Source of the DNA: an uncultured Chlamydiales bacterium
GTDB lineage: Bacteria > Chlamydiota > Chlamydiia > Chlamydiales > Rhabdochlamydiaceae
Direction of reading: 5' to 3'
Assembly (NCBI GenBank): GCA_963700985.1
Contig: OY969554.1
Span: forward strand, 96,001 to 160,000
Length of the DNA: 64,000 nucleotides
In this document: piece by piece, positions 1-15,900 of the stretch
Position numbering within the stretch: position 1 is the first letter of the stretch
Layout: each line of letters starts with the position of its first letter
Notes under the pieces: model-generated
Told to the model about the DNA's origin: nothing
The model's database searches: none
What the model saw: only the letters and a program-made list of their open reading frames with translations
Position numbers and translations under genes: made by a program

Positions 1-1293
1 ACGGCCATCGAGTATATTCAGAATTTCCGCTTTGACGAGAGCGATCTGGCCTATTTAGAAAGTCTGAAAGGCAAAGGCAGCGAACCTCTTTTTGAAAAGG
101 GCTTTCTCGATTATTTGAAGAACTTTTCCTTCACCTGTGATCTCGATGCGATGCCTGAGGGGACGCCGGTTTTTCCTTATGAGCCTATGCTACGTGTGCA
201 GGGGCCGATCATTCAAGCGCAGCTTTTAGAAAGCGCGCTGCTCAACATCATCAACTTTCAGTCGCTGATTGCTACCAAGGCGGCGCGCATTTGCTGGGCG
301 GCACGGCCAGATCCCGTGGTTGAGTTTGGCTTGCGCCGGGCTCAAGGCATCGATGGAGCGCTTTCGGCAAGTCGTGCGGCGTTTATTGGAGGATGCGAAT
401 CTACCTCGAGTGTGCTGGCTGGCAAGCTCTATGATATTCCCGTACGCGGCACGCACGCGCATAGCTGGGTAATGGCATTTGAAGATGAAGAAGAGTCTTT
501 TAAAGCTTTTGCTCATGCACTTCCGCATAGCTGTGTGTTTCTCGTCGATACTTATGACAGCCTGAAGGGCGCAAAAAATGCGATCAAAGTTGCCAAGAAG
601 TTGGGCAAAAGCATGGATATGCTTGGGGTGCGCCTCGATTCGGGCGATCTTACACATCTCAGTATTCAGATTCGCAAGCTGCTGGATGATGCGGGCTTTG
701 TAAATGCAAAAATCATGGCGAGTAATGAGCTAGATGAGCATCTAATCAGCGATCTTAAGCATCAAGGTGCGAAGATCTCTATCTGGGGTGTGGGCACAAA
801 TTTAGTCACTGGAAAAGATCAGCCCGCATTAGACGGCGTCTATAAGCTTTCTGCGCTTCAAGATCAAAATGGCAATTGGCAATATAAGGTTAAGATCTCA
901 GAGCAGATCGCAAAGGTGACTGATCCAGGCATCTTGCAAGTGCGTCGTTATTTTGATGCGCAAGGATATTTAGCTGATATGCTTTATGATTTGCCCACTT
1001 TGCCAAATGATCCGCACATTCTGATTGATCCAACAGATCCAACGCATACAAAGAAGATGCTGCCTGGCGCGCAATTTAAAGATCTTCTCGTGCCGATCTT
1101 GCGCGGGGGCAAGTGCATTTATAATTTTCCCACTTTGAAAGAGACGCAGCGTTATGCGCACGCGGAATTGGATCGCTTGCATCCAGCTATGCGTCGCTTT
1201 TTGAATCCGCAACCCTATTTTGTGGGAATGGAAAAATCCTTGTATAATTTGAAAGTCCGCATGATTGAAGAGATTAAGGAGCGCCGCACTTGA
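1..1293 (+). CDS. pncB: Nicotinate phosphoribosyltransferase (5' end outside window)
   Basis: Frame is open from base 1 (TAIEYIQNFRF...). Motifs EFGLRRAQG, GTHAHSWV (phospho-His), LVDTYD, GVRLDSGD and GVGTNLVT. Overlaps pncA by 4 bp. Confidence 0.95.
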   Translation, partial: TAIEYIQNFRFDESDLAYLESLKGKGSEPLFEKGFLDYLKNFSFTCDLDAMPEGTPVFPYEPMLRVQGPIIQAQLLESALLNIINFQSLIATKAARICWAARPDPVVEFGLRRAQGIDGALSASRAAFIGGCESTSSVLAGKLYDIPVRGTHAHSWVMAFEDEEESFKAFAHALPHSCVFLVDTYDSLKGAKNAIKVAKKLGKSMDMLGVRLDSGDLTHLSIQIRKLLDDAGFVNAKIMASNELDEHLISDLKHQGAKISIWGVGTNLVTGKDQPALDGVYKLSALQDQNGNWQYKVKISEQIAKVTDPGILQVRRYFDAQGYLADMLYDLPTLPNDPHILIDPTDPTHTKKMLPGAQFKDLLVPILRGGKCIYNFPTLKETQRYAHAELDRLHPAMRRFLNPQPYFVGMEKSLYNLKVRMIEEIKERRT

Positions 1294-1904
1294 AAACTTT
1301 ACTGCTTGTCGATTTGCAAAATGATTTCATGCCAGGTGGTCCGCTCGGCGTGCCAGAAGCTGATAAGATCATTCCGCTGATCAACAATGTCTTGCCTAAG
1401 TTTTCGCTCGTCGTGGCGACTCAAGATTGGCACCCCGCTGATCACGCGAGTTTTGCATCAAATCATCCGGGTAAGAAGCCCGGTGATCTTGTTGAGGTGC
1501 AAGGAATCGAGCAGATTCTCTGGCCGACACATTGCGTGCGCAGCACTAAAGGGGCTGAACTCGTGGCTGGTTTACGCAAAGAGATGATTGCAAATATTTT
1601 TTACAAAGGCACAGACAAGTCAATCGATAGTTATAGCGCATTTTTTGACAATGCGCGCCGTAAGTCCACAGGGCTTTTTGACTATCTAAAATCCAACGGT
1701 GTTAAAGAGATTTATATCTGCGGGGTGGCCACAGATTACTGTGTGCTCTACACCACCATCGATGCACTCGACCTAGGACTTTCCGTGTTTGTGATCTCAG
1801 ATGCTTGCCGCGGGATCGATCTTTATCCAGGCGATTGTGAGTCTGCCTTTGCCAGCATGGTCCAAAAAGGCGCCAAGCTCATCCCTTCCACCGCCCTTAT
1901 CTAA
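1290..1904 (+). CDS. pncA: Nicotinamidase/pyrazinamidase
   Basis: VDLQNDF, QDWHP, WPTHCV, KG...DSYSAF and GVATDYCV isochorismatase-family motifs. TTG start overlaps the pncB stop. Confidence 0.95.
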   Translation: MKTLLLVDLQNDFMPGGPLGVPEADKIIPLINNVLPKFSLVVATQDWHPADHASFASNHPGKKPGDLVEVQGIEQILWPTHCVRSTKGAELVAGLRKEMIANIFYKGTDKSIDSYSAFFDNARRKSTGLFDYLKSNGVKEIYICGVATDYCVLYTTIDALDLGLSVFVISDACRGIDLYPGDCESAFASMVQKGAKLIPSTALI

Positions 1905-2030
1905 AGACAAACGAGCTTTTTGGCATTTTTTTTCGCCCAGACTCTTTTAATCCTTTCATTTTTTTTCGCATCTATTTTCAATATATAGCATAAAACAAGA
2001 ACAGATCTCTTTTAGGGGGAATCAAAGGAC

Positions 2031-3263
2031 GTGAGTCAAGCGAGTCAGGGCGAAATTTCAGTCAAAAGGCAGGGGATTTCTCAAGTTATCTCTGGCACCT
2101 TGATGATCGCGGGTACCGCCATCGGTGCTGGGATGCTTGGAATTCCTCTGCTCACAGCTCAAGCTGGCTTCTGGCCCTCTCTTGTCATCACAGGCATCGT
2201 ATGGCTTTTCATGCTCTGCACCGGCCTACTCTTTTTAGAAGTTACTTTATGGATGCCGGCAGGCTCTAATATCCTTTCCATGGCCCAGCGCTTTCTCGGC
2301 ACGAAGGGAAAATTCGCCGCCGGCGGGATGTTCATCTTCCTCTACTACTGTTTAATGATAGCCTATTTCGCGGCTGGCGCCCCGCTAGTCAGTGGCTTTA
2401 TCAACGCCACTTTTGGCCTGCACCTCAGTGGAATAACGAGCTACGCATTTTTCGGTCTGGTCTTTGGGGCCATCGTCGCACTTGGCGCCAAAGCTATCGA
2501 TCGCGTCAATATATTCCTTACCATCGCCATGGTCGTCGACTACTTCATCATGGTGGTGATGGGCTGCTCAGAAGTGGATATGGGTAATTTCCAGTTTAGC
2601 AAGTGGTCGGCAGTTGCCTTCTCCATCCCCGTTCTTTTCAGTGCCTTTGGCTATCACAACATCATCCCATCTCTGTGCAACTATTTGAACCGCGAACGCA
2701 AGACGCTAAAGCTCTCGATCGTTTTAGGTACCTCGGTGCCTTTCTTGATCTACGTGGCATGGCAGTGGCTGATTATCGGCGCTGTCCCACAAGGGGCGAT
2801 TGAGCAAGCGCATATGGAGGGCCAGCCTGCCACGCAAGCGCTGAACGCTCTTGCGGGCGGCTCATCGATCTATCTCGTCGGTCAATACTTCGCCTTTTTC
2901 GCCATCATTACGTCGATGCTGGGGGTGGCTTTCTCGTTGGTAGATTTTCTTGGAGATGGATTGAAGATCGACAGCCAGAAGAAACCGCACCGTTACTTCT
3001 TAGTCTTCCTCACCTTTTTCCCACCTTTTCTGTGTGTGCTCTTTGATCCGACCGTCTTCGATCGCGCGTTAGGCATTGCTGGGGGATTTGGTGAAGCTTT
3101 CTTGAACGGACTTCTGCCAGTCACACTCGTATGGCTCGGACGCTATGCAATGAAGCTGCCTTCAGATTACGCGTTGCCAGGTGGCAAGCTCACGCTCGTC
3201 TTGCTTCTCTTGGTCTCTCTTTTTGTGGTTGGACTTGAGCTTTTCTGGGTATTCTTCCATTAG
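2031..3263 (+). CDS. tyrP: Aromatic amino acid permease (TyrP/Mtr family)
   Basis: N-terminal GTAIGAGMLGIP and FGYHNIIPSL motifs; many hydrophobic helices. Confidence 0.85.
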   Translation: MSQASQGEISVKRQGISQVISGTLMIAGTAIGAGMLGIPLLTAQAGFWPSLVITGIVWLFMLCTGLLFLEVTLWMPAGSNILSMAQRFLGTKGKFAAGGMFIFLYYCLMIAYFAAGAPLVSGFINATFGLHLSGITSYAFFGLVFGAIVALGAKAIDRVNIFLTIAMVVDYFIMVVMGCSEVDMGNFQFSKWSAVAFSIPVLFSAFGYHNIIPSLCNYLNRERKTLKLSIVLGTSVPFLIYVAWQWLIIGAVPQGAIEQAHMEGQPATQALNALAGGSSIYLVGQYFAFFAIITSMLGVAFSLVDFLGDGLKIDSQKKPHRYFLVFLTFFPPFLCVLFDPTVFDRALGIAGGFGEAFLNGLLPVTLVWLGRYAMKLPSDYALPGGKLTLVLLLLVSLFVVGLELFWVFFH

Positions 3264-3412
3264 ACCTCTTGCGTAATTCCATTTGCCCGCTAAAACCACC
3301 CTTTTTCCTCTGGTTTTTATCGCATCTCCTCATCGACCCAATTTGGGGTCGCCTCGTCAATGCGATTGGGATCAGTTCAGCCGCGATCGGGCTCTCCTTC
3401 AGTACACCGCTC

Positions 3413-4372
3413 TCAAGTTTCTGTGGAAGGGAAATCAACGCCAGAGACCTTGACGACGGCCTGCCACGCGGCTTCCTGGTTGGCGCGATCGTGAAAGTGT
3501 GGGTGACGCATTGCCTCAATTGGGCCTGTGAGCTTCTTCGGCGCCGAGGCGAAGAATTGGCCCGAGACGTCGGTTCCGAATGCCGATGCCTGGAGGTATC
3601 GACGAGCCGCGGTCTCCGGTGTCTGGGACATGCCGGGAATGAGCTTCACCAATGGAATCATCAGCCACTTCATGACCAGGCTAACGTTTCGCACCGCCTT
3701 GGTGTCGGGCGCGCTGCCGGGTGAGACGGCGTACACGGCCATGCCGTAAGGTAGCCGGCGCGCCAACGCCGCCGCCCACCAAGCAATGATGAGCTTCGCG
3801 TCGGCATACGCTCGGTTGGGCTCGTACTTCACGTTCGGCCCACTGCGCACCAGGGCTTCAATAGCGGCGGTTCGGTCACCCTGGTGGTATTTAGCCGCAA
3901 AAGACGCCACGTCGGTGTAGCTGAACATAGGGACGTCTCCACGGGCGGGTTCAGCGCCGGCGATAACAATCCGCGCATTGGGGCTCAATAAGTTGGCGCG
4001 GAGCAATCCGACAGTCAGTTGATGATGGCCGATGAGCGGGGCCTGAGCCTCCTCAATACCCGCCGCAGTGAGGACGCGCTTCTTACCTCCCACCATCCCT
4101 GCATTGAGCAGCAGGAAATCGATCGGCCGACCCCACTTGACCAGCTCAGCGAGGGCGGACTGGACGCTGGTCGGTGTGTTCAGATCCAGCTCCAGCGGCG
4201 TGAAGACCTGGGTCTTAGTTTCAGCCGCGAGCTGAGCGGCTGTTTCCTGGACCCGGGCCAAGCTGCGGCCGGTGACGATGACCTGGCAGCAGCCCTCGGC
4301 GGCGAGCATGCTGGCTGCCGCATAACCAAGCCCAGAGGTGGTGCCGGTAACGAGTGCGATCGAATGTTTCAT
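3413..4372 (-). CDS. Short-chain dehydrogenase/reductase
   Basis: LVTGTTSGLG, LNAG and YADAK (YxxxK). Start moved to ATG 4372, which follows an AAGGAG SD. GC-rich relative to flanks. Confidence 0.88.
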   Translation of the reverse strand: MKHSIALVTGTTSGLGYAAASMLAAEGCCQVIVTGRSLARVQETAAQLAAETKTQVFTPLELDLNTPTSVQSALAELVKWGRPIDFLLLNAGMVGGKKRVLTAAGIEEAQAPLIGHHQLTVGLLRANLLSPNARIVIAGAEPARGDVPMFSYTDVASFAAKYHQGDRTAAIEALVRSGPNVKYEPNRAYADAKLIIAWWAAALARRLPYGMAVYAVSPGSAPDTKAVRNVSLVMKWLMIPLVKLIPGMSQTPETAARRYLQASAFGTDVSGQFFASAPKKLTGPIEAMRHPHFHDRANQEAAWQAVVKVSGVDFPSTET

Positions 4373-4488
4373 GGGCGTCTCCTTAGTGAAGGCTGAAGGC
4401 CGAGTCGTGAGGCCCCACGAGGCCAAAGCCGGCTTGTTAATTTCGAACAATTCAGTTATATATTTGGTCGATGAAAATTTTCAAGGAG

Positions 4489-4510
4489 TTTTGAACTAAA
4501 TGTTTCAAAA
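4489..4510. promoter_or_regulatory. Putative TetR operator, TTTTGAA-N8-TTCAAAA
   Basis: Inverted repeat overlapping the TetR start codon at the end of the divergent SDR/TetR intergenic region. Confidence 0.45.
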
Positions 4511-5132
4511 TGCCGATAGGCCGCGTGGACGGCCGCGCAGCTTTGATGAGAGGGACGCGCTGGAAAAGGCGACCCAGGTATTCTGGTCGAAAGGCTACGA
4601 CGGAGTGACGATCGACGATCTCGTCGCCGGGATGGGCGTGGGACGGCCGAGCCTGTATTCCATCTTCGGCGACAAACGGACGTTATTCTTGCGCGTCCTC
4701 AAGGATTATGAGGAGAAGAAAGGCGCTCTCGCCGCGAAGGCGCTGCTGTCGCCGCAGACGCTTCGCAACTCGCTCGCCCGCTTCCTGAGATACGCCGTCA
4801 AAAGTGCGACCGAGGAAGGGTCTGCCCCGGGATGTCTCGTATTATGCATCGCGCCGCTTGTGGACGACGCTGAGGTCCGGAAATTCCTGCAGAACACCGC
4901 CGCTGCCGCCGTGACGATGGTGGAAGGTCGTTTCCGGGATGGGGTCACCGCTGGAGAAATCCCGTCCGACTTTCCTGTGGCCGTTCGCGCAAGCCAGCTG
5001 ATTGATGTTGCTCGCGGCCTTACCATGCGTGCGCGGATAGGCACGCCGCGCAAGACGCTTCTCAAAGATGCCGAGGAAGCGGCCGACTTGGTGCTCTTGT
5101 CGCGACGTGGAAATGCGGCGCCAGAACGTTGA
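4500..5132 (+). CDS. TetR/AcrR family transcriptional regulator
   Basis: RGRPRSFD...FWSKGYDGVTIDDLVAGMGVGRPSLYSIFGDKRTLF helix-turn-helix; divergent from the SDR. Confidence 0.95.
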   Translation: MFQNADRPRGRPRSFDERDALEKATQVFWSKGYDGVTIDDLVAGMGVGRPSLYSIFGDKRTLFLRVLKDYEEKKGALAAKALLSPQTLRNSLARFLRYAVKSATEEGSAPGCLVLCIAPLVDDAEVRKFLQNTAAAAVTMVEGRFRDGVTAGEIPSDFPVAVRASQLIDVARGLTMRARIGTPRKTLLKDAEEAADLVLLSRRGNAAPER

Positions 5133-5328
5133 TGCCGGATGCGTGAAGGTTGCAGCGTAGAACGCAGGAACACCGTGTGGGCAGAATGCGTTCCTGGAAT
5201 CGGTTTTTTTTGAGTTCCGGAATTAATTGCATCAGCTTTACTCTTTTTGTGAGAAGGACTTGTGCTTGGCGGAGTTAAATAATCTAATCCTAAAGAGAGT
5301 GGAGAGCTTACTACGCTTTTGGTGGTCA

Positions 5329-6225
5329 TTAAAGCGAGGCTTCTTCGTTGATAGAGCTGCAATCTTTGTAGGTAATGCTGAGATTAGGCATCTTTTCTAG
5401 AAGTTTTGTTCCAACCTTAGAGCCAACTTGGCAGTTAGTAAAGCTCAAGTGTTTTAAATTTGTATCAGATGGCAAAGAGTCGAGATAGCGCATTTGTAGT
5501 GGGGCTTTTTTGCCCTCTGCAAAGTTAATACCTATCTGGCAAACTTCCAAAGAGCTCAGGAAAGGCAGTTCGATTAAAAGCCCGCAAATATCTAATTTTG
5601 CGCCGACAGCACCTTCGATAACTAGCGAATCTAGGGCCGGATAATTTTCCGCGATTTCATGTGCATGGGTACGATCTAAAACGCCTATTACAACAAATCT
5701 CAGCTTAGTGACATCTTCCGAAGCGATGCGTGGGAAGCAGAAATTACCGTTACGAAAGCGATGAGCAGGCGGAAAGGGGAGCGCGAGCTCACGAATTTTC
5801 AGCGTCTTTGCAAGGAGTGCATCGGAGAGCATCTCCAAACAAGTAATCGGCAATTTGCCCAATGACACATATTTTAAATTTAAAATGGGCAGACAGGCCA
5901 TGACATTTAGTGCAATTGTGCGATCTTTAACTGGATGAAGCTCGCGATCAAAATAAAAAGTGCTCAAAAATGGATAGATCAAACGACAGCCACGCAAATA
6001 GGCTGCGACAATATCCTTAGAGCTTAGATTGTCTTTTCCTAAGCGCATGATGAGCTCCGAGCAGGTTAAACTGCTTCTTGCATCATTCCAGGCATTACAT
6101 ACTTGTGCAGCTTGGCCAGCCTCTTCTCCTGGAGTTAAAAAGGAGCTGATGAGAGCAGTTATACCATCTATTTGGAGAGGATGTTCAGCTGCGGAGGAGG
6201 TCCATGTGATTGCAGTATTAGTCAT
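5329..6225 (-). CDS. F-box-like / LRR-like hypothetical protein (candidate effector)
   Basis: N-terminal ISSFL...AQVCNAW F-box-like pattern and LxxLxL repeats. Paralogous to 11202..12359. Confidence 0.6.
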   Translation of the reverse strand: MTNTAITWTSSAAEHPLQIDGITALISSFLTPGEEAGQAAQVCNAWNDARSSLTCSELIMRLGKDNLSSKDIVAAYLRGCRLIYPFLSTFYFDRELHPVKDRTIALNVMACLPILNLKYVSLGKLPITCLEMLSDALLAKTLKIRELALPFPPAHRFRNGNFCFPRIASEDVTKLRFVVIGVLDRTHAHEIAENYPALDSLVIEGAVGAKLDICGLLIELPFLSSLEVCQIGINFAEGKKAPLQMRYLDSLPSDTNLKHLSFTNCQVGSKVGTKLLEKMPNLSITYKDCSSINEEASL

Positions 6226-6509
6226 AAAATTTCCACTTTAGACATTAAATATTAGAATACAGTGTAGTTTTAGTCAACTAAAGTATTTAAAAATGCGGAA
6301 TCTTTTTTGACTAAAATTAATTGTGATAATAAATAAAGAATTGATTGATAAGAAAGAGACTAGAGATGAAGGAGGTTCTCATAGAAGTAAATGCTCGTGC
6401 AAGAAAGGGTAGAAGTATATTTTGTCTGGCATAAAAAATTTTAATACAAAAAAAAAACGGCTATGGCATACGGTGAGTTTGTAGAGTATTTTTTTAAACA
6501 GGAGGGTAT

Positions 6510-6788
6510 GTGAAAAAAAATGTACTGAAGTTGGCGTTGACTGGATTGGCACTTGGCGCTATGGCCTGCGGTTGCAGTAAATCAAACGACAAAGGTTCAT
6601 CTTGCAATGGCAAGACAGACTGCAATGGAAAGCAAAAGCAGAAGCAAGAGAGTGGTTGTTCGAGTAAGCCTGGTTGCAAAGGAAAGAGTGGTTGCACGGG
6701 CAAAACTGATTGTAATGGTTCTTCTGGTTGCAAAGGAACAAATGGTTGCACAGGTAGAACAGATTGCACTGGCAAAAGCGGTAAATAG
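6510..6788 (+). CDS. Cys-rich repeat RiPP precursor with signal peptide (probable MNIO substrate)
   Basis: AGGAGG SD then GTG. Basic/hydrophobic leader ending in ACGC. Cys at 32, 38, 50, 56, 62, 68, 74, 80 and 86. Directly upstream of DUF692. Confidence 0.85.
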   Translation: MKKNVLKLALTGLALGAMACGCSKSNDKGSSCNGKTDCNGKQKQKQESGCSSKPGCKGKSGCTGKTDCNGSSGCKGTNGCTGRTDCTGKSGK

Positions 6789-6804
6789 TCGTTTCGACTA
6801 GCGG

Positions 6805-7638
6805 ATGGCCATGATAAAAAAAGCACCTAATTTAGGAATAGGAATCGGGCTTAGGCCTGTTCATTTCCAGGAGATTTTTGACTCATGGCCTCCGATTGAT
6901 TGGTTCGAAATTATCAGTGAAAATTTCATGGCTGGCGGAATGCCTCTCAGAAATTTAGAAAAGATTTTAGAGCGTTATCCAGTTGTAATGCACGGAGTAA
7001 CTCTCGCCATCGGTAGTGCCGCCCCTTTGGACTGGGAATACCTTAAAAAACTAAAAGAACTTGCCATAAAAACAAAAACCCCATGGCTTTCGGATCACCT
7101 TTGCTGGGGTCAATTGCCTGGGATGCGCTTTCACGACCTTCTTCCACTACCTCGCACAAAAGAAGTGGCCAATTATGTCGCAGAGAGAGCTCGAATTATC
7201 CAAGATTATTTGGAGATCCCATTTGCACTCGAAAATCTCTCTTCTTATGCTAATTTCAAAGATGATGAAATGACCGAATGGGAATTTTATGCAGAGGTTG
7301 TGGAAAAAGCAGACATTTCGATGATGCTCGACGTGAATAATATTTATGTTTCTTCTCGCAATGAAGGTTTTGATCCGAAGGAATATTATTCTAATCTACC
7401 CTTGAACCGAGTCATTCAGATCCATCTCGCTGGACATGCGGATCATGGGAGATATATCATCGATACGCATGACCATCCCGTCTGCGATGCAGTATGGGAA
7501 ATATATCGACAAGTTTATCAGCGAACGGAAGGTGTTTCAACTCTTCTAGAATGGGATGATCGATTTATTCCATTTGAAGAAACTTGGAAAGAGGCACTGA
7601 AGGCAAAAGAGTTCCAGAAAGAAATTATCCATGCATAA
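6805..7638 (+). CDS. DUF692 family multinuclear non-heme iron oxidative enzyme (MNIO)
   Basis: GIGLRPVH, EIISENF, HGV, SDHLCW, DLLPLP, LENLS, LDVNNIY, IHLAGH, IDTH and LLEWD metal-ligand motifs. Confidence 0.95.
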   Translation: MAMIKKAPNLGIGIGLRPVHFQEIFDSWPPIDWFEIISENFMAGGMPLRNLEKILERYPVVMHGVTLAIGSAAPLDWEYLKKLKELAIKTKTPWLSDHLCWGQLPGMRFHDLLPLPRTKEVANYVAERARIIQDYLEIPFALENLSSYANFKDDEMTEWEFYAEVVEKADISMMLDVNNIYVSSRNEGFDPKEYYSNLPLNRVIQIHLAGHADHGRYIIDTHDHPVCDAVWEIYRQVYQRTEGVSTLLEWDDRFIPFEETWKEALKAKEFQKEIIHA

Positions 7639-8494
7639 AATCCCTTCATCTCTTGAGACGCTGCAACACTGGTTTGCTAGCTTAATCACCTCTCCTATTT
7701 TACAAAGCGATGCAGATCAAATTCCTCTTTTCTCCTCAGATCTGATTGAGGAGATTCGTCAGAAGGTCGCATTCAGTCACACGATGAGAAGTGAAGAGAG
7801 GATGGGCATTTATCAACAGCAATACTGGTGGCGTCTCATCAGTGTGATACAAGATTTGTTTCCCAGTCTTGTCGCACTTTTAGATTATGAAGAGTTTAAT
7901 CGCCTAATTGCCGAACCCTACTTGGCAAGCCATATTCCACATGATTGGTTCATCTCTAACATTGGGGCTGATCTTCCAGGATGGCTCAAGACAGTCCATA
8001 AGGACGTATCATTCAGCGCACTTGCAGAAGTCGATCTAGCTTTTGAGCAATTGATTTTTACTGAGATCTTGCCCAACATCGATCTTTCTAAGTGTGAAAA
8101 TGAAACCCTCTACTTACAGCCTTTCGTACTGCTTTTTGAATTGGATGCTGATTTATTTACTTTTAGAAAACAGCTTCTCCAAAAAGAAAAGCCTTCTGTA
8201 GCAAAGTTGGAAAAATGGAGAAAAAAAAAGCATCAAGTTCTCTATCGTTTGCACGAGCAAAATTATTATGAGGAAATTCACCCTCTCTTTTTTGAACTGC
8301 TACTTCGATTGCAAAAAGGTGCCAAATTAAGTGAGCTGATCTCTTTGCTCGAGAAATTCGATGATATATCTTCTATATTTCAAATGATGGCTTCCAGAGG
8401 CTGGCTTACTCTTTCTTGTCCCAAAGCCAGTGATCGATCGAAGCAGATCCTGGTCCAAACACAAAGACGATCAAGGAAGCAAACAGGAAGCTGA
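7631..8494 (+). CDS. DUF2063-like MNIO partner protein
   Basis: LQHWFA...RMGIYQQQYWWRL...FPSL...LAEVDLA pattern. Overlaps the DUF692 stop by 8 bp, in the usual operon position. Confidence 0.8.
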   Translation: MHKIPSSLETLQHWFASLITSPILQSDADQIPLFSSDLIEEIRQKVAFSHTMRSEERMGIYQQQYWWRLISVIQDLFPSLVALLDYEEFNRLIAEPYLASHIPHDWFISNIGADLPGWLKTVHKDVSFSALAEVDLAFEQLIFTEILPNIDLSKCENETLYLQPFVLLFELDADLFTFRKQLLQKEKPSVAKLEKWRKKKHQVLYRLHEQNYYEEIHPLFFELLLRLQKGAKLSELISLLEKFDDISSIFQMMASRGWLTLSCPKASDRSKQILVQTQRRSRKQTGS

Positions 8495-8858
8495 AAGGAT
8501 CGGTATGAATGAAGCGTTGAGGATCGGATAGAATTTGTCTGAGAGCCTCTTGCTCAGAGGTGAGGATAGCAACGATCATTGTAAAGATCAAAGGGATGGT
8601 GATCAGTCTAGAAGCTAAACCCAGCAGTAGGCATGTGCCACACACTGTTTCGATAAGTGCAGTAAGCGTTGCAGAAAAAAATGGAAAAGGAATTCCTAGC
8701 GATTGAAAAAAGACAGTAACGTTCGACAAATGCCCAAGTTTTCCCAGACCAGTGATTAAAAAAGCCCCTCCCCAAAAGAGACGAATGGCTAATAAAAGAG
8801 GCGATTTTAGAGAATTCCCGAGTGAAGTTAACGCAGTGTAAAATTTATTCAAGTACAT
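8406..8858 (-). CDS. DoxX family membrane protein
   Basis: LAIRL..G..F...GLGKL, FQSLGIPFP, E..CG..LLLGL.SR and GPGSASID. Confidence 0.92.
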   Translation of the reverse strand: MYLNKFYTALTSLGNSLKSPLLLAIRLFWGGAFLITGLGKLGHLSNVTVFFQSLGIPFPFFSATLTALIETVCGTCLLLGLASRLITIPLIFTMIVAILTSEQEALRQILSDPQRFIHTDPFSFLFASLIVFVFGPGSASIDHWLWDKKE

Positions 8859-8908
8859 ATTTTTTTACATATCACAGCTTCTTTTATTTTCACAATAGCA
8901 TTTTTCAA

Positions 8909-11104
8909 TTATTTGGCAGTATAGATGAAGGTGCCATTCCATGAGGCTGGGGGCGGATTTTGCAAAAATTGGACACAGCGTGTATGTAAGGAGCGGCTTG
9001 GCAGGTCATGAAGCTGATCTTTGAGTAAATTCATAGCCTCGGTAAAAAGACGTTTGCGATAGGCGTGAAGAGCTTGTTCATACTTAGAGATGATTGTAGT
9101 CATTTCCAATTTTTCTCCCTTCTTGCCTATCAGTTCATACACTTTGATCTCTTCAGTCTCCCCCTTGAGTGTGACAAAGTCTAAGAGGCGGAAAATAAAG
9201 TCCTCTTGCGCTGATTTATAGATGCTTTCACTCACGAGAATAGAGGAACCGTAATACTTATTGAGGCTTTCTAGACGGGAAGCGACGTTGACTCCATTAC
9301 CTAAAGCAGTGAAGTTGAGTCGATCCGGCGCACCGAAGTACCCTACCATCACGCGATCTTTATGTAGACCAAAGCGCGTTTCAAAACGGGGCAGCCCCTG
9401 CCACTCAGGGGATGCGAATAATTCCTGGAGTGCTGTTGTACAATCGAGTGTAGCTTGGCAAGCGATTTGAGCATGATTCGTTAGCGGAGTCGGGGTATTC
9501 CACAGAGCCATAATCCCATCGCCGATGTATTTGTCTATGATACCGTGCCTACGGTTTTGGATGACTTGTGTCATGACCTTGAGATACCCCCCAAGTGCAG
9601 TGGCAAGTTCGTTGACAGGAAGCTTTTCGGCAAGAGAAGTGAAATTCTGGATATCTGTGAAGAGTATGGAGATCTCCTGGACTTCTCCGCCAAGAACAGG
9701 GTCTTTCTGCGACTGGAAAAGTTGTTTCACTAATTCTATGGGGACATACTTGCTCATGGCCCGCATCGCAGTCTTTGCGAGCTCAAGATCTGAGAGGATG
9801 GTGTAGACATCTTTGAAAATGGAGCGAGGCTGAGACGCTTTGAAGTCAAAATTGTGCATCTTCAACGTTTCATCGATGATCTTTTGTTGTTCCCTTTTAA
9901 GAGAGCGCTGCACAATGAATCCACCGAGGCAGATAAAGCAGATGATGCCGCCTGTAATGAGGAGAAGGTGTTTTTGCGTCTCTTGAAGGGTACCGACGTA
10001 GTAAGACTGGGGAACGACGATGCCTAGGATCCAGTCCTGAGAGTTCTCAATCTCTCTATAAGTAAGAAGATAGGTTTTATGCTGGTAGTCGAATTGTCCG
10101 GATTGCAAAGGATCAGCTTCAGAGACTAAGTTAAGAGCGGGATTTTTTAAGGCTATCTGTACTTGCTCGGGGGCATTTGTCGAAGAGAAACGGAGATTGC
10201 CTTCAATCGGACGGAGAATATCTTTATCACTTAGACGCGTGATGAGTTCCCCAGAACTATCCGCAATAAAAATAAGGTGAGGGTCTTTCGGATCATTAGG
10301 AATGAGTTTGAAGTGGCTAATCTGTTCAATCTGCCTGTAAAAGAGGCCGACTCGCAACACACCCAGGAAGTTGCCTTTGGAATCTGTGACTGCGCGTTGC
10401 ACGCTCACTTCCACCCTTCGCAGTGTTTCGGGCAGGTCCTTGTCAATTTGAGACCAGTGTAGATCGCTCCAGAGGCTTTTACCGTTATACTGCTTATTTG
10501 CCGGAGTAATGAAGGTCGAGTATGTAGTAGGATCGGCAGCTGATTTCGTTGGCCCTTGGATAAAAGGAATGCCAAATAGATCGTTTCGCGCCGAACGCGA
10601 CCGCTGCTCTGAGAGCCACTGACCATCTTTCTGATAAATAGAGAGTGTGTCTATGGGGGCAGAATCTTGGCTTGATCCTCTAAAAAGACTCAGCTCTCCT
10701 CGTCCTGTGGGGGCGAGGAGGATATTGCCATCAGCATCATATCCGATTTTTTCTCCGTAAGTAAGGGAGACCTCTGAGAGGTTGTCGTTCTTAAGCATCG
10801 CCGTAAAGAGGAAGGTTTCAAGTGAGATAGGATCTTTGGGATTAAAGACTTCGTGGTTTATCTCCGACTGGAAACCATCTTCGACTTCCTGCAATTGGTT
10901 AAGATAGAGCGTGACTTTTTCTGCAAATTCACGGCTTGCAGCAGCACGCAGGTGATCGGAAGCCTGGATCACAGAGGCTTGTGAAGCATGAAGAAACAGA
11001 TAAAAGAGAAGGCCGAGCAGGACAACAAGCCCAATAAGACTGATGCCAAAGAGATAAGCGAGCGTTATCCGGATTTTTTTATATTCAAACATCTCTTGTA
11101 ACAT
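8909..11104 (-). CDS. Membrane-anchored class III adenylate/guanylate cyclase with Cache-like extracytoplasmic sensor
   Basis: Two TM segments flank a roughly 330-aa domain. ILFTDIQNFT, DKYIGDGIMA and VNVASRLE motifs. Lys/Thr specificity residues favour ATP. Confidence 0.9.
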   Translation of the reverse strand: MLQEMFEYKKIRITLAYLFGISLIGLVVLLGLLFYLFLHASQASVIQASDHLRAAASREFAEKVTLYLNQLQEVEDGFQSEINHEVFNPKDPISLETFLFTAMLKNDNLSEVSLTYGEKIGYDADGNILLAPTGRGELSLFRGSSQDSAPIDTLSIYQKDGQWLSEQRSRSARNDLFGIPFIQGPTKSAADPTTYSTFITPANKQYNGKSLWSDLHWSQIDKDLPETLRRVEVSVQRAVTDSKGNFLGVLRVGLFYRQIEQISHFKLIPNDPKDPHLIFIADSSGELITRLSDKDILRPIEGNLRFSSTNAPEQVQIALKNPALNLVSEADPLQSGQFDYQHKTYLLTYREIENSQDWILGIVVPQSYYVGTLQETQKHLLLITGGIICFICLGGFIVQRSLKREQQKIIDETLKMHNFDFKASQPRSIFKDVYTILSDLELAKTAMRAMSKYVPIELVKQLFQSQKDPVLGGEVQEISILFTDIQNFTSLAEKLPVNELATALGGYLKVMTQVIQNRRHGIIDKYIGDGIMALWNTPTPLTNHAQIACQATLDCTTALQELFASPEWQGLPRFETRFGLHKDRVMVGYFGAPDRLNFTALGNGVNVASRLESLNKYYGSSILVSESIYKSAQEDFIFRLLDFVTLKGETEEIKVYELIGKKGEKLEMTTIISKYEQALHAYRKRLFTEAMNLLKDQLHDLPSRSLHTRCVQFLQNPPPASWNGTFIYTAK

Positions 11105-11201
11105 ATAATTAATAATAAGTTTCCTGCCAAGAGATGAAGCAGTTAGCTGAGTTTTTACAGCTTCTCAAATCCTTAAAAGTGCCTAGCTTGAGAGCAGTCT
11201 C

Positions 11202-12359
11202 TTAGAAGGTGAATGCTCCGCGGAATGTGCAGGATTCATTTCCGAATATCTTGATGTGTGGATGCCTGTATTTCCAGGGGTGGATAGTTGACAAATCAAT
11301 CAAACAACAACCCTCAAAACGCACTTCTTTCAATGATCGATGAGGAGCGATTGAGCGCACATATTCCACTTGTTTCAGGGTTAACTCAGCAGGCGTCATT
11401 TCAGGTGTTTTCCAAGGCTGAAATAAAATTGAATCGTAAAAAGCTCCAAATTTAAATCCTAGCACATCGATGGAGAGACCAGAATGTGACTCTTTGAAAC
11501 GCAGATATTTTAGCCTGGGCATTTCTAGCAGAGCTTTGAAGTCCACAAGCGGATATACCATGGTTCCGCCAAATGGTGAATACGTAGAGGAGCGTTCTTT
11601 TACCAGCGTAAGGTTTGTGAGATTGGGGAAATCAGTTGAGAGTTTTGTTACGTATGCTGCACTGAGCGTATCTCTCAAAGAAAATGTCAGCGTTTTTACG
11701 CTGGGTGTAGCAATGCCCGGTGAATTGAAAATGTGGAGGCTTGAACCACTATAAATTGGCAGATTTTTAAATGGGGGCAATGGAAGTGTTAGGTCGGTGA
11801 TCTTCAAGGTTGTTGCAGCAAATGCTTCTGAGAGAGCTTGTAAGGTTTCAGGATGCAGCGTTCCCTCGAAGGATAGGGTCGTAAGATTCAATATAGGTAA
11901 AGCGCGCATCAAATTTTCTGAAATCATAGAAAAAGGATAGATCGGAGGGGTAGCTGAAAAATGGAATGCTCGAAGCCTAGGATTAAGTTGGTAGTAGAGC
12001 TGAACTCGATCTATGATTCTTTGTGGGGTAATGTCACCTTCCTGGCTCCTAAGACACTCAATGACTTCGACGTTGGACAGGGAACGACGCATTTTAGACC
12101 AGAGTTTAGATACTCCGAAGGCGAGGAGAGTGCTCTTAGGGTCTAAATATTCAAAAACATGTGCAATTAAATCAGAAGTGACGAGGAAATCCCTAGGGAC
12201 TGTTGGCGTGCTTGCGGAGCGCGCAATTGGATTATTTCTGCTTTTCTTTGAATAAGGATCTTTATCTATTGAGGCTGCAGATCCTGAGCCAGAACCGCCA
12301 GAGATGTCGAGTGTAGAACCCGTATATACGAAAGGCGATGAACTGATTGGCGCTGCCAT
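11202..12359 (-). CDS. F-box-like / LRR-like hypothetical protein (candidate effector)
   Basis: Ser/Gly-rich N-terminus, LIAHVFEYLD...VSKLW F-box pattern, and FPNLTNLTL / MPRLKYLRF repeats. Confidence 0.65.
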   Translation of the reverse strand: MAAPISSSPFVYTGSTLDISGGSGSGSAASIDKDPYSKKSRNNPIARSASTPTVPRDFLVTSDLIAHVFEYLDPKSTLLAFGVSKLWSKMRRSLSNVEVIECLRSQEGDITPQRIIDRVQLYYQLNPRLRAFHFSATPPIYPFSMISENLMRALPILNLTTLSFEGTLHPETLQALSEAFAATTLKITDLTLPLPPFKNLPIYSGSSLHIFNSPGIATPSVKTLTFSLRDTLSAAYVTKLSTDFPNLTNLTLVKERSSTYSPFGGTMVYPLVDFKALLEMPRLKYLRFKESHSGLSIDVLGFKFGAFYDSILFQPWKTPEMTPAELTLKQVEYVRSIAPHRSLKEVRFEGCCLIDLSTIHPWKYRHPHIKIFGNESCTFRGAFTF

Positions 12360-12452
12360 AAAAACTCCTTATTTCTGGAGGATTATAGCGAGTTTTATAG
12401 ATAACTTAAATGAGTAAACTAAAATATATTAATGGTAATTATTTAAGTTAAT

Positions 12453-12749
12453 CTAGCTGCGTAAATAGGCATTAAGAGAGACCTGCTCAACGGCATTGTC
12501 GGGAGACATGCCTTGAGCTTTAAAGTATTGCAATGCAGCATCTTTTTGCGCCGGTGAGAAACGGTTGAAACGTTTGCGGTGATAGTCGCTGAGCATAGGC
12601 ATAAAATCGCTTTCTGTAAGTGGTTTCACAGCTTCCTGTCTTTTCACTTCTCCGCCGGCTGGAGTCCAGTGGGGGCGGTGACCTGCAAATGCGGCAGAAG
12701 ATGTAGAGAGCGTTGCGATAAACAGCATGCCAGTGAGAAGAGATTTCAT
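12453..12749 (-). CDS. Small secreted hypothetical protein
   Basis: MKSLLTGMLFIATLSTSSAAFA signal peptide; GAGG upstream of ATG 12749. Confidence 0.65.
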   Translation of the reverse strand: MKSLLTGMLFIATLSTSSAAFAGHRPHWTPAGGEVKRQEAVKPLTESDFMPMLSDYHRKRFNRFSPAQKDAALQYFKAQGMSPDNAVEQVSLNAYLRS

Positions 12750-12905
12750 ATTAGGCCTCAGGGTATTAGCTTGGATGTTAAGATAAGAGGCAGATTTTTG
12801 CAACATACTGAGAGATCGTCCTTATCTGGATGAGAAGTTGGGCTCGTATTTTTGGTACAAGCATGGTAACATAGCTCCTTCTAATCTCCTACAAAAGGAG
12901 GAAAC

Positions 12906-15900
12906 GTGTCTTCACCTTCCACCCCTATCTCTGCGTCGCAACACTTTGCGTTTGAGAGACCAGGTATAGGCCTACCACGAACGCTTTCAATTTCCTCTAT
13001 TCCCGATACATCTGATAAACAGCACGTCGAAACCCAGAATGGCCTCGAACTATCTATGCCCGATGAGGAGTTTGATGGAGTACCCAAGTCACCTCTGAGC
13101 GCGCACGCGGTTTTGGGCATATCAGACATGCCTTCACTTGCCTCTACTTCCAATAGATCTGATACACTGCGTATTAGAATCCGTAACGCAGCCGAGCAGC
13201 GGAACAAAAAGTTGGCAGCCCTTGATGGGTTTGAAAACCCTGATGAGTTTGATGAATTATCTAAGACACCTCCGAGGGCGAGAAATAAAAGATCAGCACT
13301 TTGTGAAATTCTTGATGGACTTACCGCCATTGATCCGTTAGATGGAGGACCCATATTACCTGGGCTCCAGATCCCTCCACATCGAGAGTCTACATATTCC
13401 GCGTCTGACTATGATTTCACGAGGGCTTCCACCCCCCTAATGATGCCTACGAGCCCAAAAATGGCTGATGCGGCAGCTATCGATGAACACGAACGAAATG
13501 TGTTAACCCGATTAGCGAATCAGCAGAGCGAAAAACTGGCAGAGTCAAACTTGCCCACGCCTGAAAGACAAACTCTGCTTGCCATAACCGATGACGTACT
13601 CGAGCTTTCCCCTACACCCCAGATCCCTCTATGCTCAGCGACTGAGTCTCTACGCATCAGGAGTACTATCGAAGCTCGAGCTGCTGTGGCAGCTGTCGAT
13701 GAACAGGGACAAACTGTGCTCCATCGAGCAGCGAAAGAAGGCCAAATAGACACATTAGAGCGGCTTTCGAAAGACGACGTTATTCTTTTAATGTGGAAAG
13801 ACAAGCATGGCAACACACCTCTTCTTTCTGCAGCATTAGAAGGGCAGTGCGTTGCATGCAAAATTTTGCTTGCAGCTGGCTCCTTTCCTACAATGGGAAA
13901 TGCACGCCGCTGGAATGCACTGCATTGTGCTGCATCAAGCAAAAATTCCGAGGTAGTGGAGCTATTTGCAGACAACGCTGCTCTTCGCGAAGAGAAAGAT
14001 ATCGATGGGCGCACACCCCTGATTATAGCAACTTTGTGTGGGCATCACGCCGCGTGCAAAATTTTGCTCGCAGCTGGCGCCGATCCTAAAGCAACAGACC
14101 GGGATGGCCATGATGCGCTGTATTGGGCTAAAGACCAAGGGCGTTGGGCTAAAGACGTAGGATATAAAATAATAGAACAACTACTAACTGCAAAGCTTGA
14201 CGAAGAGGCTGCAAAGTTGCTCGAAATACATGCTGCAAGAGAAAAACTTCTTACTGCAATGCGGAGAGGTGCATCTATGCTACCTCCCCACCTTCAGGTA
14301 GCCATCCCTGCTTCCGAAAAATCTGAAACTCCTGTCTTTCAGGTGCAGAGAGGTGGGCCTCTACCTTGGCCACCTGTAAAAATCCATGAGTGGAGAGATA
14401 AGGATGACAACACGCCTCTTCTTTCTGCAGCATTAGGAGGACAGCAAACCGCGTGTGAAACTTTGCTTGCAGCAGGTGCTGATCTTCAAAAGGTGAACGC
14501 ACGCGGCTGGAATGCTCTGCATTGCGCCGTATCAAGCAAAAATTCCGAGGTAGTGCGGCTATTTGCAGGTAACGTTACTCTTCGTGAAGGGAAAGATATC
14601 GATGGACGTACGCCTCTGATTATAGCAGCTATAGGTGGGCATCACGTCACGTGTAAAATTTTGCTTGAAGCTGGCGCTGATTTTAAAGCAGCAGACCGGA
14701 AGGGCCTAGATGCACTGTATTGGGTTAAATACTATGGGTGTTTGAATCTAGACGAAGGATATAAAATAGCAGAACAACTATTAACTGCGAGGCTTCACAA
14801 AAAGACTACAAGCTTACACGAAGTGAGCAATGCAAAAGAAAAACTCTTCGAGCAGGAACGTGCATCTATGCTAACTCCAGGTCCTGCACCCTTCCCAGCT
14901 TCCAAAAAACCAGAAACCTATATCTTTCAAGAGCAAAGAGTTAGATATCAAGTACCAGGAGATCCAGTACCTTTAAGATCCCATCAGATGGAGGTGCCTT
15001 TTCCTGAATTCTTCCCAGTTCCTCAAAAAGAGGTAGCCGTCGATGAACACGGAAGAAATGCTCTTCACCGAGCGGCGCTAGAAGGGCAAACAGAAACAAT
15101 AAAGCAGCCACCTGCGCAGCTCCATGAGTTACCTAGAGGGCCATTCTACAGTAAGCAGTTCGCTCCAGTTCATCCTGCATCTGTTCCAGCTCCCAAAAAA
15201 CCACACATTCCTTTCTCTCAAGCAGAGTTATTTGAGTCCCAACATTCGCCACCTGTACAGTTCCAGGAGTTACCTGGAGGGCCGAAGATTACAGTCATCA
15301 GGAGTCAGTTTGCTCCAGTCCATCCTGCATCCGTTCCAGCTCCCAAAGAGCCAGAAACTCCTGTTTCTCAAACACAGTGGCTTTATCCACGTCAATCATG
15401 GGTTAGCGACCAACACCAACCTTGGCTACCTGCACAACTCCATGAGTTACCTAGAGTGCATAATGCATCTACGCTCGCTCCTCAAGAAGGGGTACCTGTC
15501 GATGAAAACGGAAGAACAGTTCTTCACGCAGCGGCGATAGATGGGGACACAGGCGTAATAGAGCGGTATTCGCAAAATAAAGCTCTTCTTGAGGTAAGAG
15601 ATATAGAAAATTTTACACCTCTGCTTTGCGCAGCATTTTTGGGGAATTACTCCGCTTGTAAAACCCTGCTTAAAGTTGGTGCCGACCCCTTGGCAATAGG
15701 CGGAAACCGTCTGAATGCACTACATTGTGCTGCATCAAGCGAAAATAGCGAAGTAGTGCGTCTGCTTGTAGGTTATGCAACTCTCCTTGAAGCAAAAGAT
15801 ATTGGTGGGCGTACACCCTTGATTGTGGCGGCTAGATGTGGACGACTAGGTGCATGCAAAATTTTGCTTGAAGCTGGCGCCGATCCAAAAGCAACAGATA

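Follow-up and report, generated by a model that had tools for sequence, protein, structure and literature searches.

A 64,000-nucleotide stretch of DNA from an uncultured Chlamydiales bacterium of the family Rhabdochlamydiaceae (GenBank assembly GCA_963700985.1, contig OY969554.1, positions 96,001 to 160,000 of the forward strand; hereafter the window) contains a small Cys-rich gene at positions 6510..6788 whose product, judged from its sequence, is probably a precursor from which a lipid-anchored bufferin (captophorin) of the BufA2 or 'Cys-Lys' lineage is made. The probability of this reading is put at roughly 70%. The observations that carry it are the context of the gene, the homology of its product to other chlamydial precursors and the conservation of a lipobox at the end of the signal peptide. 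In characterised systems of this type, BufB and BufC turn Cys residues into thiooxazoles (PMC11626156).

The open reading frame (ORF) starts with GTG and encodes 92 amino acids followed by a stop codon (product MKKNVLKLALTGLALGAMACGCSKSNDKGSSCNGKTDCNGKQKQKQESGCSSKPGCKGKSGCTGKTDCNGSSGCKGTNGCTGRTDCTGKSGK); the choice of start is supported by the homologues, which open with MKKNVLK or a similar sequence. Three alignments were used, comprising five sequences (A1), nine sequences of the hexapeptide type defined below (A2) and the classic chlamydial precursors (A3). The features of the gene and of the two genes that follow it are listed here by position in the window.

6500..6506 (+): AGGAGGG, a Shine-Dalgarno-like motif 3 nucleotides before the GTG start, from direct reading of the sequence
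6510..6788 (+): precursor gene (bufA2-like), from the ORF list, its homologues and its status as the sole periodic-Cys ORF of the genome
6510..6572 (+): signal peptide, residues 1-21 (MKKNVLKLALTGLALGAMACG), ending A-C-G before C22, with n-region (KK) and h-region conserved in A2
6573..6575 (+): codon of Cys22, the proposed diacylglycerol-modified +1 residue, invariant in A1 and A2
6603..6782 (+): C-x5 hexapeptide core array, C32 to G91, with the proposed target Cys of the MNIO
6629..6647 (+): (AAAGCA)3.2 microsatellite coding for KQKQKQ, in the 12-residue gap between C38 and C50, from Tandem Repeats Finder
6675..6728 (+): first 18-residue super-unit (CKGKSGCTGKTDCNGSSG), residues 56-73, with CKGxxGCTGKxDCTGxxG conserved in A2
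6729..6782 (+): second 18-residue super-unit (CKGTNGCTGRTDCTGKSG), residues 74-91, identical to the first at 13 of 18 residues
6805..7638 (+): MNIO (DUF692) maturase of the BufB type, 277 amino acids, matching NF050167 MNIO_BufB and Pfam PF05114
7631..8494 (+): DUF2063 partner (BufC / PME type 1), 287 amino acids, matching Pfam PF09836 at 51.5 bits (cut-off 27.2)

The MNIO gene begins 16 nucleotides after the precursor gene and the ATG of the DUF2063 gene overlaps the MNIO stop by 8 nucleotides (ATGCATAA), an arrangement in which the three genes would be co-transcribed. The MNIO scores 315.9 bits on NCBIfam NF050167 (cut-off 310) and matches Pfam PF05114 at E 4e-101; on the HvfB model PRK05409 it reaches 231.8 bits, under the cut-off of 360. 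The whole genome has one MNIO and one match to the precursor profile, and on this sequence evidence the precursor is the sole candidate substrate of the single MNIO.

The precursor contains 11 Cys, at positions 20, 22, 32, 38, 50, 56, 62, 68, 74, 80 and 86, with gaps counted from C22 of 10, 6, 12, 6, 6, 6, 6, 6 and 6. Nine of them fall on the register 32+6k, where position 44 is a Q within KQKQKQ; direct reading thus agrees with an earlier note on this DNA, which had described 11 Cys in 92 residues, nine on a six-residue register, and 44 as absent. All seven units given in that note (CNGKTD, CKGKSG, CTGKTD, CNGSSG, CKGTNG, CTGRTD and CTGKSG) are present, as is the 18-residue duplication that it had described, formed by residues 56-73 and 74-91. 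The two super-units share 13 of 18 amino acids, yet just 38 of 54 nucleotides, and Tandem Repeats Finder detected no 18- or 54-nucleotide repeat in the precursor DNA, only (AAAGCA)3.2; the duplication is therefore old and has been maintained in the protein. Of the 8075 mechanical six-frame ORFs of at least 50 amino acids in the 2,067,302 bases of the whole genome, the precursor is the only one with at least three consecutive C-x5-C gaps, and the Cys periodicity is far beyond chance.

The predicted mature chain, C22 to K92, has 71 residues of 11 kinds (G15 K13 S11 C10 T7 N5 D4 Q3 E1 P1 R1), and no hydrophobic residue occurs after C22. AlphaFold2 run on A2 gave a mean pLDDT of 46.6 and a pTM of 0.19, with no secondary structure; a beta-helix with 18 residues per turn, considered for the core array, is unsupported by this model.

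A word-indexed search of 5.8 billion proteins returned only four relatives of the precursor (P0001-P0004), and a profile search of 1.84 billion representatives gave 193 matches at E <= 1e-3, 9 at <= 1e-10 and 4 at <= 1e-30. In homologues that are 53-62% identical to the precursor, signal peptide, Cys and gene position are all retained. When profile A1 was compared with 400 genomes of the phylum to which the window belongs, 43 genomes contained a match, and at 20 of the 30 listed phylum loci (19 of 29 in other genomes) the precursor-like match is immediately followed by an MNIO and a DUF2063 gene. A pattern scan of genome contigs gave ten loci, at nine of which a precursor of this kind is encoded ahead of MNIO and DUF2063 genes. 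Five of these nine duplicate loci already in the set, L040 being L003 and L041 being L004, and the genomes of L003 and L004 fall in the family of the window. The tenth, L043 from Pseudoxanthomonas, is a spurious pattern match without an MNIO. Since the order precursor-MNIO-DUF2063 recurs in the relatives, the assignment of the precursor to the adjacent MNIO, also proposed in the earlier note, is supported.

MNIO genes were detected in 139 of the 401 genomes sampled from the phylum and in 16 of the 89 from the family of the window, a patchy distribution within the phylum, and at least three styles of precursor accompany them. The hexapeptide-type set comprises 15 distinct sequences, namely that of the window, P0001-P0004, L002, L003, L004, L006, L034, L037, L038, L042, P0006 and P0007. 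Every one that could be placed in DNA is directly upstream of an MNIO and DUF2063 pair, and CKGxxG-CTGKxD-CTGxxG units are common to all 15. Invariant residues in A2 are C56, K57, G58, G61, C62, T63, G64, K65, D67, C68, G70 and G73, followed by C74, K75, G76, G79, C80, T81, G82, D85, C86 and G88; they spell two copies of CKGxxG-CTGKxD-CxGxxG and include six core Cys (C56, C62, C68, C74, C80 and C86) that are conserved in nine of nine sequences. The number of Cys after the anchor Cys is six in P0004 and L037, seven in L042, eight in seven sequences, and nine in the window, P0001 and L034.

All Cys gaps are of six residues in 10 of 13 sequences, the exceptions being the window, L006 and L034. 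The closest relative, L034, has a 7-residue gap (CKGKEQSC) where the window has one of 12, and L006 also has 12; residue 44 thus lies in a variable linker and does not necessarily mark a lost Cys. From these sequences the Cys register is kept strictly within the conserved core and is relaxed towards the N-terminal end of the array, so that the strict hexapeptide register noted earlier stands for the core and not for the N-terminal part. At L037 two precursor-like ORFs occur in tandem (2673-2960 and 3001-3330); the upstream ORF, in which signal peptide and lipobox are the same and Cys are few, looks like a degenerate paralogue.

The relation of these precursors to known bufferins was traced through chlamydial intermediates. 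More distant genomes of the phylum, with MNIOs 66-74% identical to that of the window, have classic precursors of 135-150 amino acids upstream of the MNIO; besides a signal peptide, these contain the helical stretch LNxxGxxLYxSLDxEGKALA, two CKG units among six Cys at spacings of 6,6,7,6,6, and a tail DKNxAVK...KR. The NCBIfam BufA2 model (NF050166) is matched at E <= 1e-3 by 12 of 19 chlamydial precursors, the best at 8e-12; members of A3 match it at E 8e-12 to 7.6e-5, and weak matches were obtained for L004 (E 0.005), L006 (E 0.0003) and L008 (E 0.003). Comparison of A2 with A3 by hhalign gave a probability of 97.8%, E 9.7e-13, over 97 columns, in which signal peptide pairs with signal peptide, CKG with CKG, and the C-terminal KxKRExAA tail with its classic counterpart. 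In this alignment C50-C80 of the window are the equivalents of classic Cys I-VI, the central linker being one residue shorter (7 to 6).

Runs of C-x5-C also occur in BufA2 proteins. Among 151 proteins, consisting of the 150 matches listed by the profile search and P0004, 89 have the classic spacing and 18 have at least five consecutive gaps of six; P0036 (79.6 bits), P0086 (74.4) and P0137 (65.2), which have four to seven consecutive C-x5-C gaps, score above the BufA2 cut-off. Two other proteins combine such arrays with additional parts: P0026 has a lipobox, eight Cys on a six-residue register (CAGKxA) and a C-terminal thioredoxin-like domain (TIGR01068, E 2.8e-13), and P0011 has a 10-Cys hexapeptide array ahead of a helical, BufA2-like C-terminal part.

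An MNIO tree was calculated from 44 loci, leaving out duplicate loci and those without an MNIO match longer than 200 amino acids, and was rooted on a second chlamydial MNIO family (35-39% identical); it is a quick tree with a long outgroup branch (3.5). All nine hexapeptide-type loci fall in one clade (SH-aLRT 98) nested among the classic-type loci, and the clade also takes in two short forms and one other locus. In 'Cys-Lys' MNIOs, for example those acting on BufA2, an Asp adjoins the catalytic Asp, and in 'Lys-Cys' enzymes (EGKCG) a Phe occupies this site (PMC13097082). Residues 249-252 of the window MNIO are EWDD versus ERDF in the Lys-Cys-type structure 3BWW, the equivalence of the sites being derived from a pairwise alignment. 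The Asp was found at nine of nine hexapeptide-type and 14 of 15 classic loci, and Phe at six of ten loci of the second chlamydial family, which has xGxCG-repeat precursors. The enzymes of this second family (L048-L058) carry ERDF at the specificity site and their precursors are built from G-x-C-G units; L055 (oriented 1163-1504) has six Cys on a strict 9-residue register (9,9,9,9,9) and L052 has NCSGKKSNG repeats.

The hhalign link, the BufA2 matches in relatives, the MNIO tree and the C-x5-C runs in true BufA2 proteins together indicate that the precursor is a divergent chlamydial offshoot of the BufA2 or 'Cys-Lys' bufferin group and forms no separate class; the suggestion in the earlier note of a distinct precursor class is not supported. 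Its statement that the peptide is unlike the EGKC-type oxazolins was borne out, the 92 residues lacking EGKCG and the MNIO having EWDD, not ERDF.

The leader ends MACGC and had been thought to resemble a lipobox. The C22 column is invariant in A1 (five sequences) and A2 (nine), and C20 varies. A regular expression written in the style of PROSITE PS51257, and not taken from a predictor, is satisfied in the window at both C20 and C22, and at the aligned Cys of 13 of 13 hexapeptide-type, two of 11 classic and three of four short-form precursors, as well as of P0006 and P0007. The residues before the anchor Cys are small (ACG, VGG, MSS, ISS, ISG, ITS, SSG, VGA and MCG), and the +2 residue after C22 is Ser, not Asp. 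The lipoprotein machinery is encoded in the genome with scores above the cut-offs: LspA (PF01252, 105.8 bits), Lgt (PF01790, 215 bits) and Lnt (TIGR00546, 257.8 bits). A lipoprotein anchor at C22 is plausible, given the invariance of this residue, the agreement of 13 of 13 sequences with the lipobox rule and the presence of genes for Lgt, LspA and Lnt; this part of the claim was retained, with C22 and not C20 as the conserved Cys of the leader. Such an anchor is not new in principle, since lipidated forms of both bufferins and oxazolins have been described. About 16% of Buf2 proteins are predicted to be lipoproteins (PMC12452194); lipidation of an MNIO-modified ribosomally synthesised and post-translationally modified peptide (RiPP) through the lipoprotein pathway was shown for DybA, NedA was expressed to test it, and lipidated bufferins, oxazolins and a CxxxxC group were predicted (PMC13056109).

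These data allow a biosynthetic route to be proposed, in which conversion to 5-thiooxazoles, the count of modified Cys, acylation, cellular location and a role in copper handling are all putative. In the cytoplasm, the MNIO with its DUF2063 partner, of RiPP recognition element (RRE) type, would turn several core Cys, out of nine, into 5-thiooxazoles by oxidation, with a loss of 4 Da for each. The outermost Cys may stay free or disulfide-bonded, as in Caulobacter Buf2, where the central Cys show a shift of -4.03 Da and the first and last Cys are unmodified (PMC11626156). The Sec signal peptide would then export the modified precursor, Lgt would place diacylglycerol on Cys22, LspA would cleave ahead of it, and Lnt would N-acylate it. 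The product would be a 71-residue chain tethered to the membrane in the periplasm, chelating copper and buffering copper stress. In evolutionary terms, a chlamydial BufA2-like precursor may have lost its helical N-terminal domain and acquired a lipobox, its Cys spacing changing from 6,6,7,6,6 to gaps of six throughout as the array lengthened; the closest kin of the window may also have lost the C-terminal KxKRExAA tail.

One alternative accepts the same bufferin precursor and MNIO chemistry and differs in the processing, with signal peptidase I cutting, for example, after A-M-A19 to release a soluble periplasmic peptide. It would fit the A-x-A-like A17-M18-A19 directly before C20, the lack of a lipobox Cys in nine of 11 classic chlamydial relatives, and the solubility of the Caulobacter bufferins, whose cleavage falls at a site predicted for signal peptidase (PMC11626156). 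It is nevertheless unlikely, given that the Cys aligned with C22 is invariant in the hexapeptide-type homologues while its neighbours vary, that all 13 sequences satisfy the lipobox rule, that most homologues have no A-x-A before the anchor Cys (VGGC, MSSC, ISSC, ISGC, ITSC), and that Lgt, LspA and Lnt are present in the genome. A modified and anchored peptide may also serve a purpose other than copper binding, such as handling another soft metal, redox functions or the scavenging of reactive oxygen species at the envelope, or participation in the disulfide-cross-linked envelope of chlamydiae. No copper-related gene or SigF/NrsF regulator was seen beside the cluster, and mercury is suggested by some bufferin fusions (PMC12452194); however, the characterised MNIO-DUF2063 products all bind copper and protect against it (PMC13097082, PMC11626156), the window MNIO scores above the BufB equivalog cut-off, and a non-copper role is considered improbable.

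It is less probable still that the precursor is an unmodified Cys-rich lipoprotein, metallothionein-like or disulfide-rich, with the MNIO serving another substrate. Thiolates by themselves can bind soft metals, and the precursor passes no precursor hidden Markov model (HMM); against this stand its place directly upstream of MNIO and DUF2063, kept across many genomes, its homology to BufA2-like precursors, the Cys-Lys specificity Asp in the MNIO, and the lack of any other Cys-periodic ORF or precursor-profile match in the genome. That the gene is a chance ORF or a collagen-like low-complexity stretch has a negligible probability and is already refuted, because the precursor is conserved: homologues at 53-62% identity share its signal peptide, Cys and gene position, four representatives match at E <= 1e-30, and a Shine-Dalgarno motif is present. 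What might have suggested it are matches to collagen-like adhesins (Scl, Lcl; Pfam Collagen) at 14.7-18.8 bits against cut-offs of 27.2-500 (E 0.003-0.01), which were judged compositional; a collagen helix was rejected in any case, the period being six with Cys and not that of G-x-y triplets. Likewise, the strand opposite the precursor has a mirror ORF of 110 residues with a high content of P, L and Q at 6494-6826 (-), most likely as a by-product of the periodic composition. The exact precursor peptide is absent from a collection of 15 billion proteins, which says little, because the GTG start may have been rendered as V in the reference.

Several results weigh against the reading of the gene as an anchored BufA2-lineage bufferin precursor. 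The precursor has no match to a precursor model of NCBIfam or Pfam at E <= 0.1, only collagen-like noise, and the 60-bit BufA2 cut-off is reached by none of the 19 chlamydial precursors (best 45.2 bits). A simple filing under BufA2 is disfavoured by the failed family model, the different spacing, and the absence of the folded part and of the tail. The C-terminal KxKRExAA tail, present in classic and most hexapeptide-type precursors, is absent from the window, L034, L003 and L004, which would be poor substrates if the tail is a recognition element. Among the nine core Cys, Lys follows only C56 and C74, the others being followed by T, N or S. At the signal peptide, A-M-A just before C20 resembles an A-x-A site of signal peptidase I. 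The DUF2063 protein is weak on NCBIfam HvfC (17.7 bits versus 142), and the neighbouring DoxX-family protein reaches 64.7 bits on the NCBIfam HvfX family, under the cut-off of 80, and is encoded on the opposite strand. No copper-related gene was seen in the ORFs of positions 1-16000, where only six proteins were scanned against the family libraries. Ten of the 30 listed phylum loci have no MNIO in the retrieved DNA. The precursor profile has no match in three congeneric genomes, of which one (L044) has an MNIO that is 67% identical with EWDT at the specificity site. Within 1 kb upstream of the L044 MNIO there is no small ORF (at least 35 amino acids, at least three Cys), a 341-residue ORF preceding it; the congeners therefore seem to differ in the type of cluster or to be without one.

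With regard to known systems, Buf2 (BufA2, BUF_6/12Cys, NF050166; BufB2/BufC2 of Caulobacter vibrioides) and the window share a Cys-rich precursor with a Sec signal upstream of a BufB-type MNIO and DUF2063, CKG units at C-x5-C spacing, and an Asp after the catalytic Asp of the MNIO, and their profiles are homologous via the chlamydial intermediates. The window differs in having no NF050166 match at E <= 0.1, gaps of six in place of 6,6,7,6,6, nine core Cys instead of six, no predicted helical or folded part (AlphaFold2 pLDDT 46.6), an invariant lipobox and, in its subclade, no KxKRExAA tail. Copper induces the buf operons, which are protective; neither DoxX nor, for the modification, the signal peptide is required (PMC11626156).

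The oxazolin (HvfA), fontiphorin and gonophorin precursors resemble that of the window as repeat-built Cys peptides with signal sequences, accompanied by MNIO, DUF2063 and DoxX. In the oxazolin and fontiphorin group (HvfB/HvfC/HvfX) many Cys are converted and the role is copper handling, a role that the window product may share. Unlike that group, the window has no EGKCG 5-mers or 17-residue repeats and is built of 6-residue units in an 18-residue super-unit; its MNIO is below the HvfB cut-off and has EWDD versus ERDF, with Asp and not Phe. The oxazolin structure has been revised to a 5-thiooxazole, fontiphorin carries seven such groups, three precursor groups (DUF2282, Lys-Cys as well as Cys-Lys) were defined, and the list of loci includes Parachlamydia and Protochlamydia (PMC13097082). 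The diacylglycerol RiPPs (DAG-RiPPs), comprising lipo-DybA, the lipidated oxazolin-type NedA and the predicted lipidated bufferins, share with the window an MNIO-type precursor, a signal peptide ending in a lipobox and the general Lgt, LspA and Lnt enzymes. Those published are chryseobasin-like, EGKCG-type or CxxxxC-type and come from Bacteroidota and Pseudomonadota; no chlamydial and no CKGxxG-CTGKxD-CTGxxG DAG-RiPP was found in the texts consulted, the supplements to which may list such peptides.

Hundreds of unclassified small Cys-bearing ORFs precede MNIO genes, and in a genome table Protochlamydia amoebophila and Waddlia chondrophila are listed with DUF692, DUF2063 and DoxX and without Buf1, Buf2 or an EGKCG precursor (PMC12452194). 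The strings 'GCTGK' and 'CTGKSDC' had 0 matches in two spreadsheets of PMC12452194, one of them in truncated form, and in two files, including the precursor file, of PMC13097082. A search of the published literature for MNIO or DUF692 with Chlamydi- gave only a taxonomic listing in the bufferin preprint, and one for bufferin with Chlamydiae gave nothing relevant.

One further gene, of a kind frequent in such clusters though not required, converges on the DUF2063 gene.

8406..8858 (-): DoxX-family membrane protein, 150 amino acids, convergent, matching Pfam DoxX and scoring below the cut-off of the NCBIfam HvfX family

This protein scores 59.4 bits on Pfam DoxX PF07681 (cut-off 23.6), and its gene shares 89 nucleotides (8406-8494) with that of DUF2063. 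Among the relatives, the DoxX gene is inverted in L034 and L036, and is downstream on the same strand in L040 and L041. A promoter scan gave nine promoter-like sites versus 5.7 expected, with no clear promoter ahead of 6510, and a terminator-like site at 6846 falls inside the MNIO gene. A look-up of sequencing runs returned no RNA run and four soil-metagenome DNA runs, one with 0.59 of the sampled words.

A protein with dCache and adenylate/guanylate cyclase domains adjoins the cluster (8909-11104, -). What looks like a closely similar cyclase (oriented 52-1167) lies directly upstream of the classic-type precursor at L027, from another family of the same phylum; the cyclase could be a conserved neighbour or regulator of the cluster. 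The cluster is flanked by ORFs of 298 (5329-6225, -) and 385 amino acids (11202-12359, -), which by eye have LPILNL and LxLPxPP in common; the former has no Pfam or NCBIfam match.

The candidate bufferin locus does not overturn current understanding. The action of MNIO and DUF2063 on Cys-rich precursors exported by Sec has already been published, as have Cys-Lys units, lipidated forms and repeat arrays. To these is added here a clade of chlamydiae that escapes current signatures, in which the lipobox is invariant, the core is fold-less, and repeat number and tail vary naturally. Bufferins (captophorins) rank with the most widespread RiPPs, yet the signatures in print overlook the precursors of chlamydiae, a gap that this locus and its relatives fill for one clade. 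The lipobox adds another candidate to the recently described lipidated RiPPs. The clade offers a natural series of six to nine on-register Cys, with or without a C-terminal tail; it could help to show which element the DUF2063 partner recognises and how many Cys are processed by an MNIO.

A more far-reaching interpretation, put forward here as doubtful, is that the bufferin of this clade has been reduced to a fold-less, lipid-tethered string with a Cys every six residues and an 18-residue super-period. A link between a copper sponge and host-cell biology would be speculation. If the interpretation is true, loss of the tail in the subclade of the window would imply that the repeat itself is recognised by the DUF2063 partner. 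Most of the nine Cys would be converted, so that the product would be a linear array, bound to the membrane, with as many as nine thiooxazoles as copper ligands; in contrast to the small, folded, soluble bufferins that carry two to four modified Cys, it would be a high-capacity copper sponge in the envelope of an uncultured soil member of the phylum.

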